Part shown: in pieces, positions 27,014-31,193 of the stretch
Layout of the letters: each line of letters starts with the position of its first letter
How positions within the stretch are numbered: position 1 is the first letter of the stretch
NCBI GenBank assembly: GCA_964536865.1
Contig: CAZHYN010000004.1
Coordinates: 54,686-86,685 of the forward strand
Source of the DNA: an uncultured Planctomycetia bacterium
GTDB lineage: Bacteria > Omnitrophota > Gorgyraeia > Duberdicusellales > 4484-171
Direction: 5' to 3'
DNA: 32,000 bases
Made by a program: the position numbers and the translations under genes
The notes under the pieces: model-generated
What the model was told of the DNA's origin: nothing
Seen by the model: the letters and a program-made list of their open reading frames with translations, nothing else
Database searches by the model: none

Positions 27014-27089
27014 CGGGAGGTGGCGCAGGCAGGAAGAGCGCACTTGGTTTGGGACCAAGGGGTCGCGGGTTCAAATCCCGCCCTCCCGA
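27014..27089 (+). tRNA. tRNA-Pro (anticodon UGG)
   Basis: Hand-folded cloverleaf: acceptor CGGGAGG/CCTCCCG, D stem GCGC/GCGC, anticodon stem CTTGG/CCAAG with loop TTTGGGA, T arm GCGGG-TTCAAAT-CCCGC, discriminator A. No encoded CCA. Confidence 0.9.
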
Positions 27090-27211
27090 TGTTATTTGAT
27101 AATGTAAAAACTTAGCGATAGAAGCAGAAACTTAACCGTTTATCTGGAGGAACAGAATTAAATTTAAAAACAAATTGAAAACCAAAGAAGCCGATAAAAG
27201 GTTATTTCTTC

Positions 27212-27240
27212 TTGTTAGGGCAAACTTAAGCAGGTAAAAT
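27212..27240 (+). promoter_or_regulatory. Possible promoter for tRNA-Arg (TTGTTA-17 nt-TAAAAT)
   Basis: Hexamers at 27212-27217 and 27235-27240. The tRNA starts at 27267. Confidence 0.35.
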
Positions 27241-27301
27241 ATTAGGTAAAGGTTATTTGACAATTTGCGCCCGTAGCTCAATAGGATAGAGCATCTGCCT
27301 T

Positions 27302-28050
27302 CTAAATGAGGCACAGCAATCCTGATTTTCGGGATTGCCTAGCCGAATTTGGTCCTGTAAATGAGTAAAGCGAATTTTACGGGCCAAAGTTGGGAGCCTC
27401 TATGCGGAAATGAACGCATAGAGTGGATGCGGCTGTATGCAAGGAAGTCCTCCTTTTCTTAAGGAAAAGGATGGATCACTTGCAGGAAACCTTTATATCC
27501 AAGGGCAGAGGCAAAATTTAAAAGGAAAGGAGGTGAGAGTGCATCATACAAAGGTCAAAGCGGATATAGGGTTTGCAAATGTTATTTCTGATTTAGTAGA
27601 AAAAGGATATGTGCCTTGTATTCCCATTTCTGAGCACCAACATTACGACTTACTAGCGGTGTTAAAGGATGGGGAGGTTGTAAAGATTCAAGTAAAATAT
27701 GCGCATCTTAAAAAGAATGGTACTATTGAGGTGAAGTTCAGAACAAGTTGGGTGGATAAGAAAGGAATTCACACTCGACGCTATAAAGAGGAAGATTTCG
27801 ATTACTACGCTATCTATTGCCCTGAGAAAAGGAAGGTATTGTATGTACCTAATGCTCCTAATTGCCCAAAAGCTATTCGCTTTGACAAACCTGGCAACAA
27901 TCAGAGTAAGTACATAAAATGGGCCTCTGCTTACTTTGATATAAGGGGATCCTCAGAGACTATACGCCGCAGGCCTGAGATGGCCAAGACATAGTCCAGA
28001 CCACAATCCCGATATGTTTGTCGGGAGCCGAAGAAATTCGGAGTGGTAAG
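27302..28050 (+). mobile_element. Group I intron (IC3-like tRNA intron), 749 nt, ORF-containing
   Basis: The 5' exon ends in U27301, which pairs as U.G with G27308 in P1 (27297-27301 with 27308-27312). Other helices: P2 27316-22/27332-38; P3 27428-33/27966-71; P4 27439-43/27479-83 with a GAA/CA internal loop; P5 hairpin 27447-76; P6 27490-93/27501-04. J6/7-P7 reads CAGAGACUAUACG. P7 is 27958-63/27991-96 and P8 is 27972-75/27982-85. A GAAA-capped hairpin lies at 28028-41 and the terminal G is at 28050. Confidence 0.8.
27539..27994 (+). CDS. Intron-encoded PD-(D/E)XK-type homing endonuclease (I-Ssp6803I-like family)
   Basis: GGAGG at 27529-33 lies 5 nt before GTG 27539, giving a 151-aa product. 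The pattern KADIGFANVISDLVEKGYVPCIPISEHQHYDLLAV...VVKIQVKY...DFDYYAIYCPE...LYVP fits the small PD-(D/E)XK endonuclease fold (D ... QVK). The ORF terminates at a TAG inside P7'. Confidence 0.7.
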   Translation: MHHTKVKADIGFANVISDLVEKGYVPCIPISEHQHYDLLAVLKDGEVVKIQVKYAHLKKNGTIEVKFRTSWVDKKGIHTRRYKEEDFDYYAIYCPEKRKVLYVPNAPNCPKAIRFDKPGNNQSKYIKWASAYFDIRGSSETIRRRPEMAKT

Positions 28051-28208
28051 CTAAGCAGAGGGTTGCAGGTTCGAGTCCTGCCGGGCGCGGGATTGATTTC
28101 AATATCGTAACTTTGTCTTTAAAATTAGGATTTAGTTATTTTAGTGCGGTAGGCATCTCGGAACAAATAGATACCAGAGGCTACTGCGACTTTGTCGCAG
28201 ATTTGTTA

Positions 28209-28226
28209 CGAGTCCTGCCGGGCGCG
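28209..28226 (+). repeat. Direct 18-nt duplicate of the tRNA-Arg 3' end (att-like)
   Basis: CGAGTCCTGCCGGGCGCG at 28209-28226 is identical to 28072-28089, the T-loop/acceptor 3' strand of tRNA-Arg. Confidence 0.85.
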
Positions 28227-28265
28227 TAATTTCATAGCGTCTAGCAGATAGGAGGTTAGAAGTAG

Positions 28266-29522
28266 ATGAAGAAATTTATTGTTTTTATAGTAGGTTTTGT
28301 ATTTGTTTTAATAGGGATATACCTCGCCGTATACATATTCATAAATACCCAAGGAAAGAAGTTATTTTTAGATTTCTTAAAGAAAAAGTATCACACTGAA
28401 GCCCAACTGGAGAGTTTAAAGCTTAGCTTCCCTTTTCGTCTCACTTTAAAAAATTTTAATTATCAAGATGTATCCTTCTCTCAGGCTAAAGTTACTCTGA
28501 TAGGCATAAATCCTTTTAATTTATCCTTTATTTTAACTGACATTTATGTAGAGAATTTATCCCTTAATATGGAAGGAAAGGATAAAGGATTTGTCATCAA
28601 GCCTTTTCTGGATACAACCAGTGGGTTTTCTACTGAAAAAAAGCTACTGCCAAGAAAATCCCTATCAAAACAAAAAAATACTCAAAAAAAGAATGTTTCT
28701 TTTATAGCTAAAAAACTCTTTTTAAAAGATGCTACGGTTAATCTAAGGACCAAATTGAGAAATTTACCTCTCACTGTTAGCTTTAAGGATTTAAATTTAA
28801 AAGTTAGGGGCCTTTGTTATCCTAAACTTTCTAAGTTTTATTTTGAATTAACTTCTTCTTTGGAGGCAGAAGAAAAACTTATGAAAGATTTCATAAACGC
28901 AAAAGGATGGGTTGATTGGAACAAAAAAGATATGGATGTGGTCATCCATTTAGTTGGCTTTGACTATTTAGCTTTCAGTAGTTACTATCCCCCCTTCTGG
29001 AGGCCAGAAAATTTACAGCTAAAAGAAGCTTTCCTTTCTTTGGATGCTTTGTTAAACTCAGTAAATAACGATTTAACTATCAATGCTACTCTCTATTTAG
29101 ATAAATTTTCCTTTGTGGATAATCCTCAAGAACCTTCTAGGGTTGAGTCTTTAAAAACTTTGATTGCTCTGTTTAAGAAAGACAAAGAATCTAAACCTAC
29201 TCTGCATTTCCCTCCTATAAAGACCAAGATGGATAAACTAGAGTTGGATTTATCTTCTATTTGGGAGGAGATTCAAAAGAAAGTAAAGGTGAGTTTTTTA
29301 AACACGGTGATTAGATTTTTAGGTAAAACACCTGAATTTTTAGGTAAAGGGACAGAGGAAATAAAGAAGATGAGTATAGACCCCGCAGTAGAAGCATTAA
29401 AGGGGGTTGTGGATATTATTAAGGGATTGATTATTCCTTCTCCGCAAGAGAATCCTGAAGAGGGGGGAAAAGAAGGCGAAAAAAAATTTTACCTTCCCGA
29501 CCTATTTAAGATAGAATATTAA
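28266..29522 (+). CDS. Hypothetical membrane-anchored protein (single N-terminal TM, Lys/Asn-rich)
   Basis: 418-aa ORF. GGAGG lies 8 nt upstream of the ATG. The N-terminal hydrophobic helix is FIVFIVGFVFVLIGIYLAVYIFI. I recognise no catalytic motif. Confidence 0.65.
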   Translation: MKKFIVFIVGFVFVLIGIYLAVYIFINTQGKKLFLDFLKKKYHTEAQLESLKLSFPFRLTLKNFNYQDVSFSQAKVTLIGINPFNLSFILTDIYVENLSLNMEGKDKGFVIKPFLDTTSGFSTEKKLLPRKSLSKQKNTQKKNVSFIAKKLFLKDATVNLRTKLRNLPLTVSFKDLNLKVRGLCYPKLSKFYFELTSSLEAEEKLMKDFINAKGWVDWNKKDMDVVIHLVGFDYLAFSSYYPPFWRPENLQLKEAFLSLDALLNSVNNDLTINATLYLDKFSFVDNPQEPSRVESLKTLIALFKKDKESKPTLHFPPIKTKMDKLELDLSSIWEEIQKKVKVSFLNTVIRFLGKTPEFLGKGTEEIKKMSIDPAVEALKGVVDIIKGLIIPSPQENPEEGGKEGEKKFYLPDLFKIEY

Positions 29523-29528
29523 TTCTAG

Positions 29529-29549
29529 TGGTGGGCGTAGCTCAATCTG
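29529..29549 (+). repeat. Direct 21-nt duplicate of the tRNA-His 5' end (att-like)
   Basis: TGGTGGGCGTAGCTCAATCTG at 29529-29549 is identical to 29680-29700, covering G-1, the acceptor 5' strand and the D arm. Confidence 0.85.
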
Positions 29550-29570: not shown

Positions 29571-31193
29571 TCAAGTCAGAGACGAAGAAAAATTATTTAG
29601 TCGAATTGAATCCCGATGAGCGAAGCGACATCGGGAGGGCTCAAATTTAGATTTACGCTTTGATACTTTGACTGATAGATGGTGGGCGTAGCTCAATCTG
29701 GTTAGAGCACTTGACTGTGGCTCAAGATGTTGGGGGTTCGAATCCCCTCGCCCACCCCAATTTTTAATTTGGCTATTTTTGAGCAAAAAGGAATAGGGTA
29801 AATTATAGGAAAATAATAACTTAGCGTCAGAGAGCCGAAAGTTCGAGCCAATCTTTTTGAAAAATTCCCGTTTTTCTTCTAAACTTCCCTTAGTTGCTAT
29901 GTAACTGGCTTGGCCACAAGATATTACAAAATTTCGAGCCAGTTCGAGCCAAACTTTACCTCTACTTTCAAGATAAGTCAATTTTTCTTTTATCTCTAAC
30001 TTCTCATTTAGGAGAGATGATTTCTTTTTTTTGTATTCTTCCTCACTAATAACTTGATTTAGATAAGCATCTAAGAGAATATTTAGTTTTTTATCTATTT
30101 CACCAATTCGGTTATTGAGGAAAGAGATAGAGAAGGAAGTTGTAGAATTTGTCGACTCTTCATCAATCATTTTAAGCAAAAAATTTTTAAGATCATTCTC
30201 TATGGAAACTTTCTTAATTGCTTCATTTATTTGTTCAACGAGCACCTCCTCACGCAAAAATGGTTCATCGCATTTGCCTTTCTTTTTTGTACAACGATAA
30301 TAAATATACTTTTGTTTTTGGATCTCAGAAGTTATCATTCCACCACATTTACCACATCGGATAAAGCCTCGAAAGACATGATAATGAGGTCCATTTTTGC
30401 GGGGTTTACTTCGTAAATTAAAAACCTTCTGTACCTTATCAAAAAGCTCTTTGGTAATGATAGGTGGATGAGTGCCTTCGTAAAGTTGTCCCTTAAAGAC
30501 AAAAGCACCATAATAGAAAGGATTTTTGAGGAGACGTTCAATATTACTTTTACTTAATTTTCCTCGTTTTCTTCTACTGGCCAAGCCAGAGGCAGTCGCC
30601 AATTTTCTTAGGTCATCTAAAGAGTATCTGCCTGTAGCATAAAGTTCAAAAAGTTCTTTTACCTTTCCAGACACTTCAGGATCAATCTCTATAGTATGGT
30701 TAACAGTGTTATTCTTATAACCAAGGGGAGCAAAGCCAGGATATTCGCCTCTTCTTAGTTTTTCTCTTATTCCTCTCTTAGTGTTTTCGCTTAAGTTATC
30801 TACATAATATTTAGATTGTCCAAAAATTATGTTAAGTATAAATTTACCTTGGGCATTGTTATCGAAGCGATAGGTAGGAAATCTCAAGTCGATAATCTTT
30901 CCTATATCTATAAGATAAATAATCTTTCCTCCATCAATAGAGTTTCTTGCTAATCTATCCGGATGCCAGGCAATAATTCCTTCTGCTTTTCCTTGCTCTA
31001 TTAGCTCAATCATTCTATTAAATATAGGTCGTCCTGGTGATTTTGCAGTTTTTGCCTCTTGAAATTCATCCACAACTATTAATCCTTCTTTTTGAGCAAA
31101 TTCACGACACTCAGTTATCTGGGATTGAATAGAGAGGACTTGTCTGTCTTCTGAATCTATGGACTTACGGGCATAGATAAAATATTTAATCAT
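29571..31193 (-). CDS. Large serine recombinase (resolvase/invertase catalytic domain, recombinase domain, zinc ribbon, coiled coil)
   Basis: N-terminus FIYARKSIDSEDRQVLSIQSQ with the catalytic Ser, then WHPDRLARN. Zinc ribbon CGKCGG...YYRCTKKKGKC, followed by a Lys/Glu-rich coiled coil. The last ~60 codons are antisense to tRNA-His (GDSNP comes from the T-arm), so the C-terminal tail is probably junction-derived. Confidence 0.85.
   Translation of the reverse strand: MIKYFIYARKSIDSEDRQVLSIQSQITECREFAQKEGLIVVDEFQEAKTAKSPGRPIFNRMIELIEQGKAEGIIAWHPDRLARNSIDGGKIIYLIDIGKIIDLRFPTYRFDNNAQGKFILNIIFGQSKYYVDNLSENTKRGIREKLRRGEYPGFAPLGYKNNTVNHTIEIDPEVSGKVKELFELYATGRYSLDDLRKLATASGLASRRKRGKLSKSNIERLLKNPFYYGAFVFKGQLYEGTHPPIITKELFDKVQKVFNLRSKPRKNGPHYHVFRGFIRCGKCGGMITSEIQKQKYIYYRCTKKKGKCDEPFLREEVLVEQINEAIKKVSIENDLKNFLLKMIDEESTNSTTSFSISFLNNRIGEIDKKLNILLDAYLNQVISEEEYKKKKSSLLNEKLEIKEKLTYLESRGKVWLELARNFVISCGQASYIATKGSLEEKREFFKKIGSNFRLSDAKLLFSYNLPYSFLLKNSQIKNWGGRGDSNPQHLEPQSSALTRLSYAHHLSVKVSKRKSKFEPSRCRFAHRDSIRLNNFSSSLT
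29681..29759 (+). tRNA. tRNA-His (anticodon GUG) with encoded G-1 and CCA
   Basis: G-1 plus acceptor GTGGGCG/CGCCCAC, D arm GCTC-AATCTGGTTA-GAGC, anticodon stem CTTGA/TCAAG with loop CTGTGGC, T arm GGGGG-TTCGAAT-CCCCT, discriminator C, CCA. Confidence 0.9.
29754..29845. repeat. Left copy of a perfect 92-bp inverted repeat (partner 31858-31949)
   Basis: The reverse complement of 29754-29845 equals 31858-31949 at every position checked by hand. A further 15-bp block, 29847-29861, matches 31811-31825. Confidence 0.9.

Follow-up and report, generated by a model that had tools for sequence, protein, structure and literature searches.

An endonuclease-bearing group I intron between U34 and C35 of the tRNA-Arg(UCU) gene of an uncultured Omnitrophota bacterium

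Two halves of a tRNA-Arg(UCU) gene, separated by 749 nucleotides (nt), are found in contig CAZHYN010000004.1 (GenBank assembly GCA_964536865.1), which derives from an uncultured bacterium labelled Planctomycetia and placed in the phylum Omnitrophota. The question raised by this locus is whether the halves are exons of one working gene, rejoined in the RNA by a group I intron, or the remains of a gene broken by an insertion. A stretch of 32,000 nt (positions 54,686 to 86,685, forward strand; hereafter the window) was analysed, and all positions given below are those of the window. The locus is regarded, with high confidence, as one tRNA-Arg(UCU) gene into which a mobile group I intron has been inserted between U34 and C35. 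An earlier note on this DNA, made from the sequence alone, had proposed such an intron with an open reading frame (ORF) and with the junctions U27301 and G28050.

Hand-spliced from 27267-27301 and 28051-28089, the sequence was called by ARAGORN as a 74-nt tRNA-Arg(tct) with a normal cloverleaf and the anticodon UCU. Within the window alone the junction is ambiguous by 4 nt, as CUAA stands both after the 5' exon and at the start of the 3' exon. It was fixed to U27301 and C28051, with the intron at 27302-28050 between U34 and C35, because homologous loci share their exon ends while the first intron bases differ. The 5' exon always ends in ...CCUU in 65 loci, and the 3' exon starts with CUAAGC (or CUAAUC/CUAAGG) in all 41 introns of alignment A2 (non-redundant introns with L6 removed; the window is row 1, 27290-27503 plus 27929-28062). 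The G before the 3' exon (omega-G28050) is invariant in these 41 introns and in all 65 loci. In the alignment 98% of the cells of the anticodon stem are paired, and 5/5 pairs show double changes. The proposed spacing of the halves and the proposed junction therefore stand, on both the ARAGORN call and the exactness of the splice sites across homologous loci. Unspliced, the gene is invisible to ARAGORN and to Rfam in the 32-kb window, where both see tRNA-Pro (27014-27089) and tRNA-His (29682-29759); these two are the only Rfam matches at gathering score in the whole window. With introns allowed, ARAGORN located the split gene, misplaced the junction and miscalled the anticodon, for example as 'tRNA-Pyl(cta)', and in this mode it was used as a locator only.

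The stronger evidence for a group I intron comes from comparison within the family. A P1-P10 model was drawn on the window and projected onto A2, with partners slid by 1-3 columns and 500 shuffles as controls. In the 41 introns 85.1% of cells were paired, against 36.9-41.8% for slid partners; double changes occurred in 61 of the 83 model pairs, and none of the 500 shuffles equalled any measure. All modelled pairs are standard in the window. The core with its P3/P7 pseudoknot is present and covaries, P3, P4, the base of P6, P7 and P8 being 92.7-100% paired. Distal P5, distal P6 and P9a carry little weight, being of variable length and poorly aligned; the distal P6 pairs are moreover not comparable across A2, from which L6 was trimmed. 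The J6/7-P7 string singled out in the earlier note, CAGAGACUAUACG, lies at 27954-27966 and is nearly invariant in the intron family. When the P6-J6/7-P7-P3' pattern was searched in metagenomes, a large number of unrelated group I introns, from mitochondrial-type and rRNA genes, came up as well; the motif is therefore a generic signature of the group I core, and only introns in tRNA-Arg(UCU) were used from that search. By its traits the intron may belong with the other bacterial tRNA introns of subgroup IC3: the anticodon-loop site and a GNRA loop on P9b are found in 41/41 aligned introns, and the P5 of the window forms a simple hairpin.

ORF-less homologues at the same tRNA site connect the family to the Rfam group I model, RF00028. 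The 249-nt ORF-less intron of locus L051 matches with 25.9 bits (E=0.0018) over model positions 1-253, and its UCAGAGACUAUACG (J6/7-P7-P3'), its AAGACAUAGUCC (J8/7-P7') and the P3/P7 pseudoknot align to the matching positions of the model. Among metagenomic ORF-less tRNA-Arg(UCU) introns (194-280 nt), 16 of 17 match over the full length with 24.9-40.4 bits (E=8e-7 to 0.03). In total 17 of 19 ORF-less homologues gave full-length matches, within the same range of bit scores.

The ORF in L6 encodes a protein that matches PF11645 (PDDEXK_5) with E=1.8e-28 and 99.7 bits, against a gathering score of 26.1, over profile positions 1-135 of 138. A weaker match (E=4.6e-5, 26.7 bits) was obtained to PDB entry 2OST, labelled 'putative endonuclease', which is the structure of I-Ssp6803I; no family matched in an NCBIfam scan of the protein. 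D9, D37, Q51 and K53 are invariant in 26 homologues (alignment A1), and in the alignment to 2OST, D37 and QVK fall on its YD and VQVK. The four agree with a catalytic motif made up of an acidic residue, a D and (E/Q)xK, and by comparison with the Hjc/I-Ssp6803I fold they are taken as putative catalytic residues. Gene callers start the ORF at ATG 27437 (185 amino acids, aa), while homologues are mostly 152 aa long and start with MHHTK. The GTG at 27539 was chosen as start (151 aa) because it is preceded by the Shine-Dalgarno sequence AGGAGGUG and because homologues repeat the same GGAGGUGA-start-CAUCAYAC arrangement. The ORF continues from L6 through the 3' strand of P6 to the 3' strand of P7, so that its last ~19 codons, which overlap P6', J6/7, P7, P3', P8 and P7', also encode core RNA. 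A search found 245 endonuclease homologues, and those named 'group I intron-associated PD-(D/E)XK endonuclease' by NCBI are mostly from Candidatus Omnitrophota. The presence of a nuclease ORF in the intron is thus borne out and narrowed to the I-Ssp6803I family by the PF11645 and 2OST matches. At the level of sequence comparison, the reading of the locus as a tRNA-Arg(UCU) split at 34/35 by a group I intron with an ORF is supported by splice-site conservation, covariation in P2, P3, P4, P7, P8 and P9, the RF00028 matches of ORF-less homologues and the matches of the ORF in Pfam and PDB. Coordinates are collected in Table 1.

Table 1. Exons, intron elements and endonuclease gene of the split tRNA-Arg(UCU) locus (positions in the window; pairing and double changes as in alignment A2).
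Feature	Position	Strand	Remarks
5' exon, tRNA-Arg(UCU)	27267..27301	+	GCGCCCGUAGCUCAAUAGGAUAGAGCAUCUGCCUU; acceptor stem, D arm, anticodon-stem 5' strand, C32, U33, U34
Group I intron	27302..28050	+	749 nt, omega-G28050 at end; core-helix covariation; RF00028 matches of ORF-less homologues; 97.3% nt identity to L004 intron over 27393-28089
3' exon, tRNA-Arg(UCU)	28051..28089	+	CUAAGCAGAGGGUUGCAGGUUCGAGUCCUGCCGGGCGCG; C35, U36, A37 to discriminator G73; CCA not encoded
P1 5' strand, family-conserved	27299..27301	+	C32, U33, U34 with G27396, A27395, G27394; U.G wobble at splice site
Enlarged L1	27302..27393	+	92 nt, ~84 nt lineage-specific; alternative guide GAGGCA 27308-27313, hairpin A 27316-27338, hairpin B 27343-27393
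Internal guide region UUGG-GAG-C	27390..27397	+	GAG 27394-27396 = P1 3' strand; UUGG 27390-27393 can form P10 with 28051-28054
P2 hairpin	27398-27406 with 27415-27423	+	loop GAAAUGAA; 97% paired, double changes 8/9
P3	27429-27436 with 27964-27970	+	U27434 bulged; 92.7% paired, double changes 5/7
P4	27438-27443 with 27479-27484	+	encloses P5; 98.8% paired, double changes 5/6
P5	27448-27459 with 27463-27475	+	3 basal pairs supported; distal part length-variable, poorly aligned
P6	27485-27486, 27490-27499 with 27951-27952, 27938-27947	+	12/12 pairs standard in window; base 98.8% paired, double changes 1/2
L6	27500-27937	+	438 nt; Shine-Dalgarno and most of ORF
Shine-Dalgarno AGGAGGUG	27528..27535	+	3 nt before GTG start; GGAGG core 5 nt before start
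Homing endonuclease gene, PD-(D/E)XK (I-Ssp6803I) family	27539..27994	+	151 aa; GTG start; UAG stop inside P7 3' strand
J6/7 (UCAGA), P7 5' strand (27958-27963) and P3 3' strand (27964-27970)	27953..27970	+	UCAGAGACUAUACG, nearly invariant
P7	27958-27963 with 27991-27996	+	99.2% paired, double changes 2/6; C-G to U-A, A-U to G-C
P8 hairpin	27972-27975 with 27982-27985 (27972..27985)	+	100% paired, double changes 3/4
J8/7 (AAGAC) and P7 3' strand (27991-27996)	27986..27996	+	AAGAnAUAGUCC, conserved; aligns to RF00028 J8/7-P7' in L051
P9	28001-28004 with 28043-28046 (domain 28001..28046)	+	99.4% paired, double changes 2/4
P9a	28007-28012 with 28021-28026	+	length-variable, poorly aligned
P9b	28028-28032 with 28037-28041	+	GAAA loop; 100% paired, double changes 5/5

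Species-representative genomes were scanned with the endonuclease alignment; 599 pattern-matching stretches were obtained, 487 were confirmed as relatives, and the best 80 were examined. In 65 of these best 80 loci a tRNA-Arg(UCU) split at exactly U34/C35 houses the endonuclease or, in two cases, adjoins it. By record title the loci belong to Omnitrophota, metagenome-assembled genomes labelled Planctomycetia, Elusimicrobiota, Endomicrobiales, Anaerolineae, Chloroflexota and Saprospiraceae, and to the gammaproteobacterial Sedimenticolaceae, Chromatiaceae, Woeseiaceae, Acidiferrobacteraceae and others. The view that a UCU isoacceptor combined with the 34/35 site and a nuclease ORF is uncommon has to be given up in the face of these numbers, and putative group I introns in tRNA-Arg-TCT had been reported before (PMC4853749). 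The organism of the window is an Omnitrophota bacterium. Among the closest relatives is L004 (isolate AUK132), with an endonuclease 96% identical to that of the window. The 97.3% nt identity between the two loci covers 27393-28089, and the flanks are without blastn or tblastx similarity; the tRNA is accompanied by Rho and P5CR genes in L004-type contigs, as against RNase PH, Ham1 and tRNA-Pro in the window. In three loci (L012, L026 and L060) the endonuclease ORF inside the intron is broken and no intact frame starting with MHHTK is left, which is consistent with decay of a homing enzyme after fixation. ORF-less intron copies (194-280 nt) also exist at the same tRNA site. Near-identical introns in unrelated contexts, together with broken-ORF and ORF-less copies, form the pattern that would be expected of a homing cycle.

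Two sequences in the window could guide the 5' splice site. The three pairs of the family-conserved P1 (CG, UA and UG) are each found in 41/41 introns of A2, and so is the guide element GGAGC(C/U), which in the window reads GGGAGCC, with its GAG 1 nt upstream of P2. Throughout A2 a P10 can be formed between the 2-4 nt before the conserved GAG and the first bases of the 3' exon; its first pair is GC in 41/41 introns, its second AU in 27 and GU in 10 (37/41). The earlier note had drawn P1 elsewhere, as a 5-bp helix with a U27301.G27308 wobble. This helix does exist, though with 6 base pairs (bp) (27296-27301 with 27308-27313) and a 6-nt loop, and it appears in the minimum-free-energy and centroid folds; G27308, however, is not a family-conserved position, and the closest relatives are without the stretch that contains it. 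The extra L1 sequence is missing from L004 and L259/L260 (96% endonuclease identity), L005 (87%), L208 (79%) and L204 (73%). It is considered genuine because two assemblies made independently, ENA ERZ27248455 and Logan SRR7517633, both contain it. A role as a repeated mobile element received no support, as blastn of the window and all fetched loci found no second copy of the insert. Insertions of 20-120 nt in L1 are common in the family (L007, L014, L017, L048 and gammaproteobacterial loci), so that the insertion by itself is no argument against function.

Several observations weigh against the presence of a functional intron. No RF00028 match was found in 27200-28300 of the window even at E<=10, where the sole match was a chance mir-542, and none was found at gathering score in 20 ORF-bearing homologous loci, which gave only tRNAs and one signal recognition particle (SRP) RNA. 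Two ORF-less introns (L050 and L117) are likewise without a match, and all matches of ORF-less homologues, though significant by E-value, are below the curated cut-off of 50 bits, which formally leaves them outside RF00028. The conserved P1 comprises only 3 bp and, being invariant, has no covariation support. Furthermore, in the minimum-free-energy fold the 5' splice site is tied up in the 6-bp L1 helix, which, if it is not the productive P1, could in this folding model impair splicing. The silence of RF00028 in the window is ascribed to the 438-nt L6 and the 92-nt L1, since compact homologues too score below the cut-off; the negatives in the ORF-bearing loci are attributed to the large L6 insertion and to weak sensitivity of the model for this clade, not to absence of an intron. 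The RF00028 search suggested in the earlier note gave a divided result: nothing in the window, which is formally the first of the two outcomes that the note had named as jointly refuting it, and 25-40 bits in ORF-less homologues. That no intron is present at all, the tRNA gene having been disrupted by a nuclease cassette or another mobile element and being now a pseudogene, would agree with the missing Rfam match and with the serine recombinase gene and partial tRNA duplications nearby. Such a disruption is hard to reconcile with an insertion point that does not shift by a single nucleotide between phyla, U standing at -1 and G closing the intron, with the 194-280-nt ORF-less versions that match RF00028 at the same site, with the strong covariation of the P3/P7 pseudoknotted core, and with an insertion that has neither terminal repeats nor a target duplication; it is regarded as extremely improbable.

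If an intron is accepted, the enlarged L1 leaves room for other readings of this copy. The U27301.G27308 helix may itself be the productive P1, with hairpins A and B as extra peripheral helices of the P2 type and the guide at 27394-27396 vestigial. This is favoured by its place in both predicted folds, the wobble at the splice site and the 6-nt loop, and by L014, which alone shares the AAUGAGGCA at the start of the L1 insertion and has it at the same place despite an endonuclease only 65% identical and different following hairpins; this hints that the motif may be under selection. The helix is, however, missing from the other 39 aligned introns, also from those of the nearest relatives (endonuclease identities of 96, 87, 79 and 73%), and the window retains the invariant GGAGCC 1 nt from P2. 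No P10 can be drawn beside G27308, where C28051 would face U27307, whereas UUGG beside the conserved GAG gives a P10 of 4 bp, and one recent insertion would have had to re-place P1 correctly ~85 nt from P2. A productive U27301.G27308 helix is therefore held to be possible but doubtful, and from sequence comparison the conserved guide (27394-27396) more likely provides the productive P1 than the helix with 27308-27313. A more tentative suggestion is that GAGGCA in L1, standing beside the retained ancestral 3-bp guide, represents a snapshot of guide replacement or a competitor that gates splicing and tRNA supply, in which case the AAUGAGGCA of L014 would reflect selection. The recent, lineage-specific insertion and the stability of the competing helix could also mean a decaying intron, in which the 5' splice site is caught by L1, the gene has become a relic without function and another tRNA-Arg(UCU) gene elsewhere serves the AGA codons; the view of the genome is limited to 32 kb, and with relatives of 96-97% identity in other genomic contexts more than one tRNA-Arg(UCU) locus per genome is possible. 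Decay is nevertheless unlikely, as the core pairs, omega-G and the endonuclease ORF are all intact in the window, 20-120-nt L1 insertions occur in many family members, ARAGORN found no second tRNA-Arg in the 32-kb window, and Beggiatoaceae genomes have shown no tRNA-Arg-TCT other than the interrupted gene (PMC4853749).

For a functional, mobile intron with the conserved guide, the following course is proposed. The gene would be transcribed into one precursor, in which the intron would fold into the P1-P9 core. Free guanosine would attack the bond after U27301, held in P1 as a U.G wobble, and the freed 3'-OH of U34 would then attack after omega-G28050, giving joined exons and a tRNA that reads AGA. 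The endonuclease, by analogy, would cut intron-less tRNA-Arg(UCU) genes around the palindromic DNA of the anticodon arm, and repair would copy the intron into the cut gene (homing). Both self-splicing of this copy and homing, with the activity and the target of the enzyme, are inferred. The window has a G+C content of 36.4%, and in its 21 long ORFs AGA accounts for 47.5% of the Arg codons (28.6 per 1000 codons); the tRNA-Arg(UCU) is therefore in heavy demand.

Some variants among the relatives were observed in addition. L050 (1203-1905) and L051 (1501-2273) contain ORF-less introns of 199 and 249 nt, with a free-standing endonuclease homologue as the immediate neighbour of the tRNA; it follows the tRNA in L050 and precedes it in L051. 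They resemble the arrangement of cyanophages, in which a free-standing endonuclease is combined with an ORF-less intron. In two Ignavibacteria loci, L065 (1321-2051) and L069 (1310-2046), the endonuclease-bearing intron apparently lies between U36 and A37 (CCUUCU/...G/AAGCUGU, slashes marking the junctions), which would be a second site in tRNA-Arg(UCU). The metagenome contig Ga0126304_10007013 (L156) has an ORF-less intron with the GGAGC guide and the core, apparently in another tRNA, after CUCUU (possibly Lys-CUU, after position 36); the intron family may thus occupy other tRNAs too. Endonuclease relatives of 29-46% identity were also found in 50 IMG/VR viral contigs (L209-L258), many of them inside split tRNAs reported by ARAGORN with introns allowed, which may be phage tRNA genes or lie in host flanks of proviruses. 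In the viral contigs L241 and L247 a tRNA-Arg(UCU) is split at 34/35. A 2014 review on bacterial group I introns states that no phage tRNA introns were known then, and tRNA hosts are not listed there.

Among the known systems, the intron of cyanobacterial and plastid tRNA-Leu(UAA), of subgroup IC3, is reportedly inserted between U34 and position 35 and normally without an ORF. It shares with the present intron the 34/35 site, a very short P1 formed from ...CUU with the anticodon stem paired, and a compact core, and differs in the tRNA. The introns of Azoarcus tRNA-Ile(CAU) and Agrobacterium tRNA-Arg(CCU) are said to be compact, ORF-less IC3 introns in the anticodon loop; this location is alike and the class probably so, while their tRNAs and insertion positions differ, as does the lack of an ORF. 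The Azoarcus J6/7-P7 string, GUAGAGACUAGACGG, would be close to the (C/G)(U/C)AGAGACUAUACG of the present family. The tRNA-fMet intron of Synechocystis PCC 6803 reportedly encodes I-Ssp6803I (structure 2OST). It has in common with the window the endonuclease family and an anticodon-loop intron with its own PD-(D/E)XK enzyme, and differs in tRNA and site, the protein match being distant (26.7 bits). I-Ssp6803I is a tetramer with a 23-bp pseudo-palindromic target, and its homologues are found 'generally in cyanobacteria' (2012 review, PMC3384342), whereas the clade of the window is mainly from Omnitrophota, with relatives in other phyla. By analogy, a target of this kind would fit the anticodon arm here.

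Most of the literature found on tRNA-Arg(UCU) group I introns concerns organelles. Putative group I introns in tRNA-Arg-TCT were reported from Candidatus Maribeggiatoa 'BOGUAY' (MacGregor et al. 2013, Mar Genomics 11:53, as cited in PMC4853749) and from Candidatus Thiomargarita nelsonii Bud S10 (Flood et al. 2016, PMC4853749). In both, the interrupted gene is the sole tRNA-Arg-TCT found and was overlooked by automatic annotation, and the structure, type and splicing of the Beggiatoaceae introns were left undetermined by the authors. The interrupted gene of Thiomargarita spans 324 nt, so its intron has no ORF. Compared by description only, the Beggiatoaceae introns have the same host gene as that of the window and are missed by automatic annotation alike; their hosts are gammaproteobacterial. 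The host gene tRNA-Arg-TCT is thus already known for putative group I introns, and the present case is not a new kind of system.

Downstream of the gene, the last 18 nt of the split tRNA-Arg (28072-28089) are repeated exactly and directly as CGAGUCCUGCCGGGCGCG at 28209-28226, 120 nt after the gene and behind a terminator-like hairpin (28184-28200). The repeat has the look of a partially duplicated tRNA or of an att-type remnant. Similarly, 20 nt at the 5' end of tRNA-His (29681-29700) are directly repeated at 29530-29549, 150 nt upstream of that gene. Between these partial tRNA copies lies an ORF of 418 aa without a Pfam match (28266-29522). In relatives the next tRNA follows tRNA-Arg(UCU) within tens of nt; the 1.6-kb spacer in the window, with a partial tRNA copy at either end, therefore resembles an insertion. 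A large serine recombinase ORF (29571-31193, minus strand, 540 aa; Resolvase, Recombinase and Zn_ribbon_recom) overlaps tRNA-His (29682-29759) with its 3' end on the opposite strand and may belong to an integrated element beside the tRNA cluster.

The analysis adds the breadth of the family (487 confirmed endonuclease relatives, in several phyla), a structure supported by covariation and the unusual L1 seen in this copy. These findings are of use chiefly for annotation and as a data set on intron homing, the dual guide being a smaller question. In several uncultivated phyla I-Ssp6803I-type endonucleases occur commonly in introns of tRNA-Arg(UCU), and the near-identical introns in unrelated contexts, with the ORF-less and ORF-broken copies, constitute a ready data set on the homing cycle. 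Standard tRNA finders miss the split gene, and carrier genomes therefore seem to be without tRNA-Arg(UCU), even though AGA makes up nearly half of the Arg codons here; a gap of this kind had already been noticed in genomes of Beggiatoaceae (PMC4853749). A tRNA-Arg(UCU) hidden in this way can distort inferences on completeness and codon usage for metagenome-assembled genomes. If the organism has no tRNA-Arg(UCU) gene besides the interrupted one, the translation of its commonest Arg codon would depend on RNA self-splicing.

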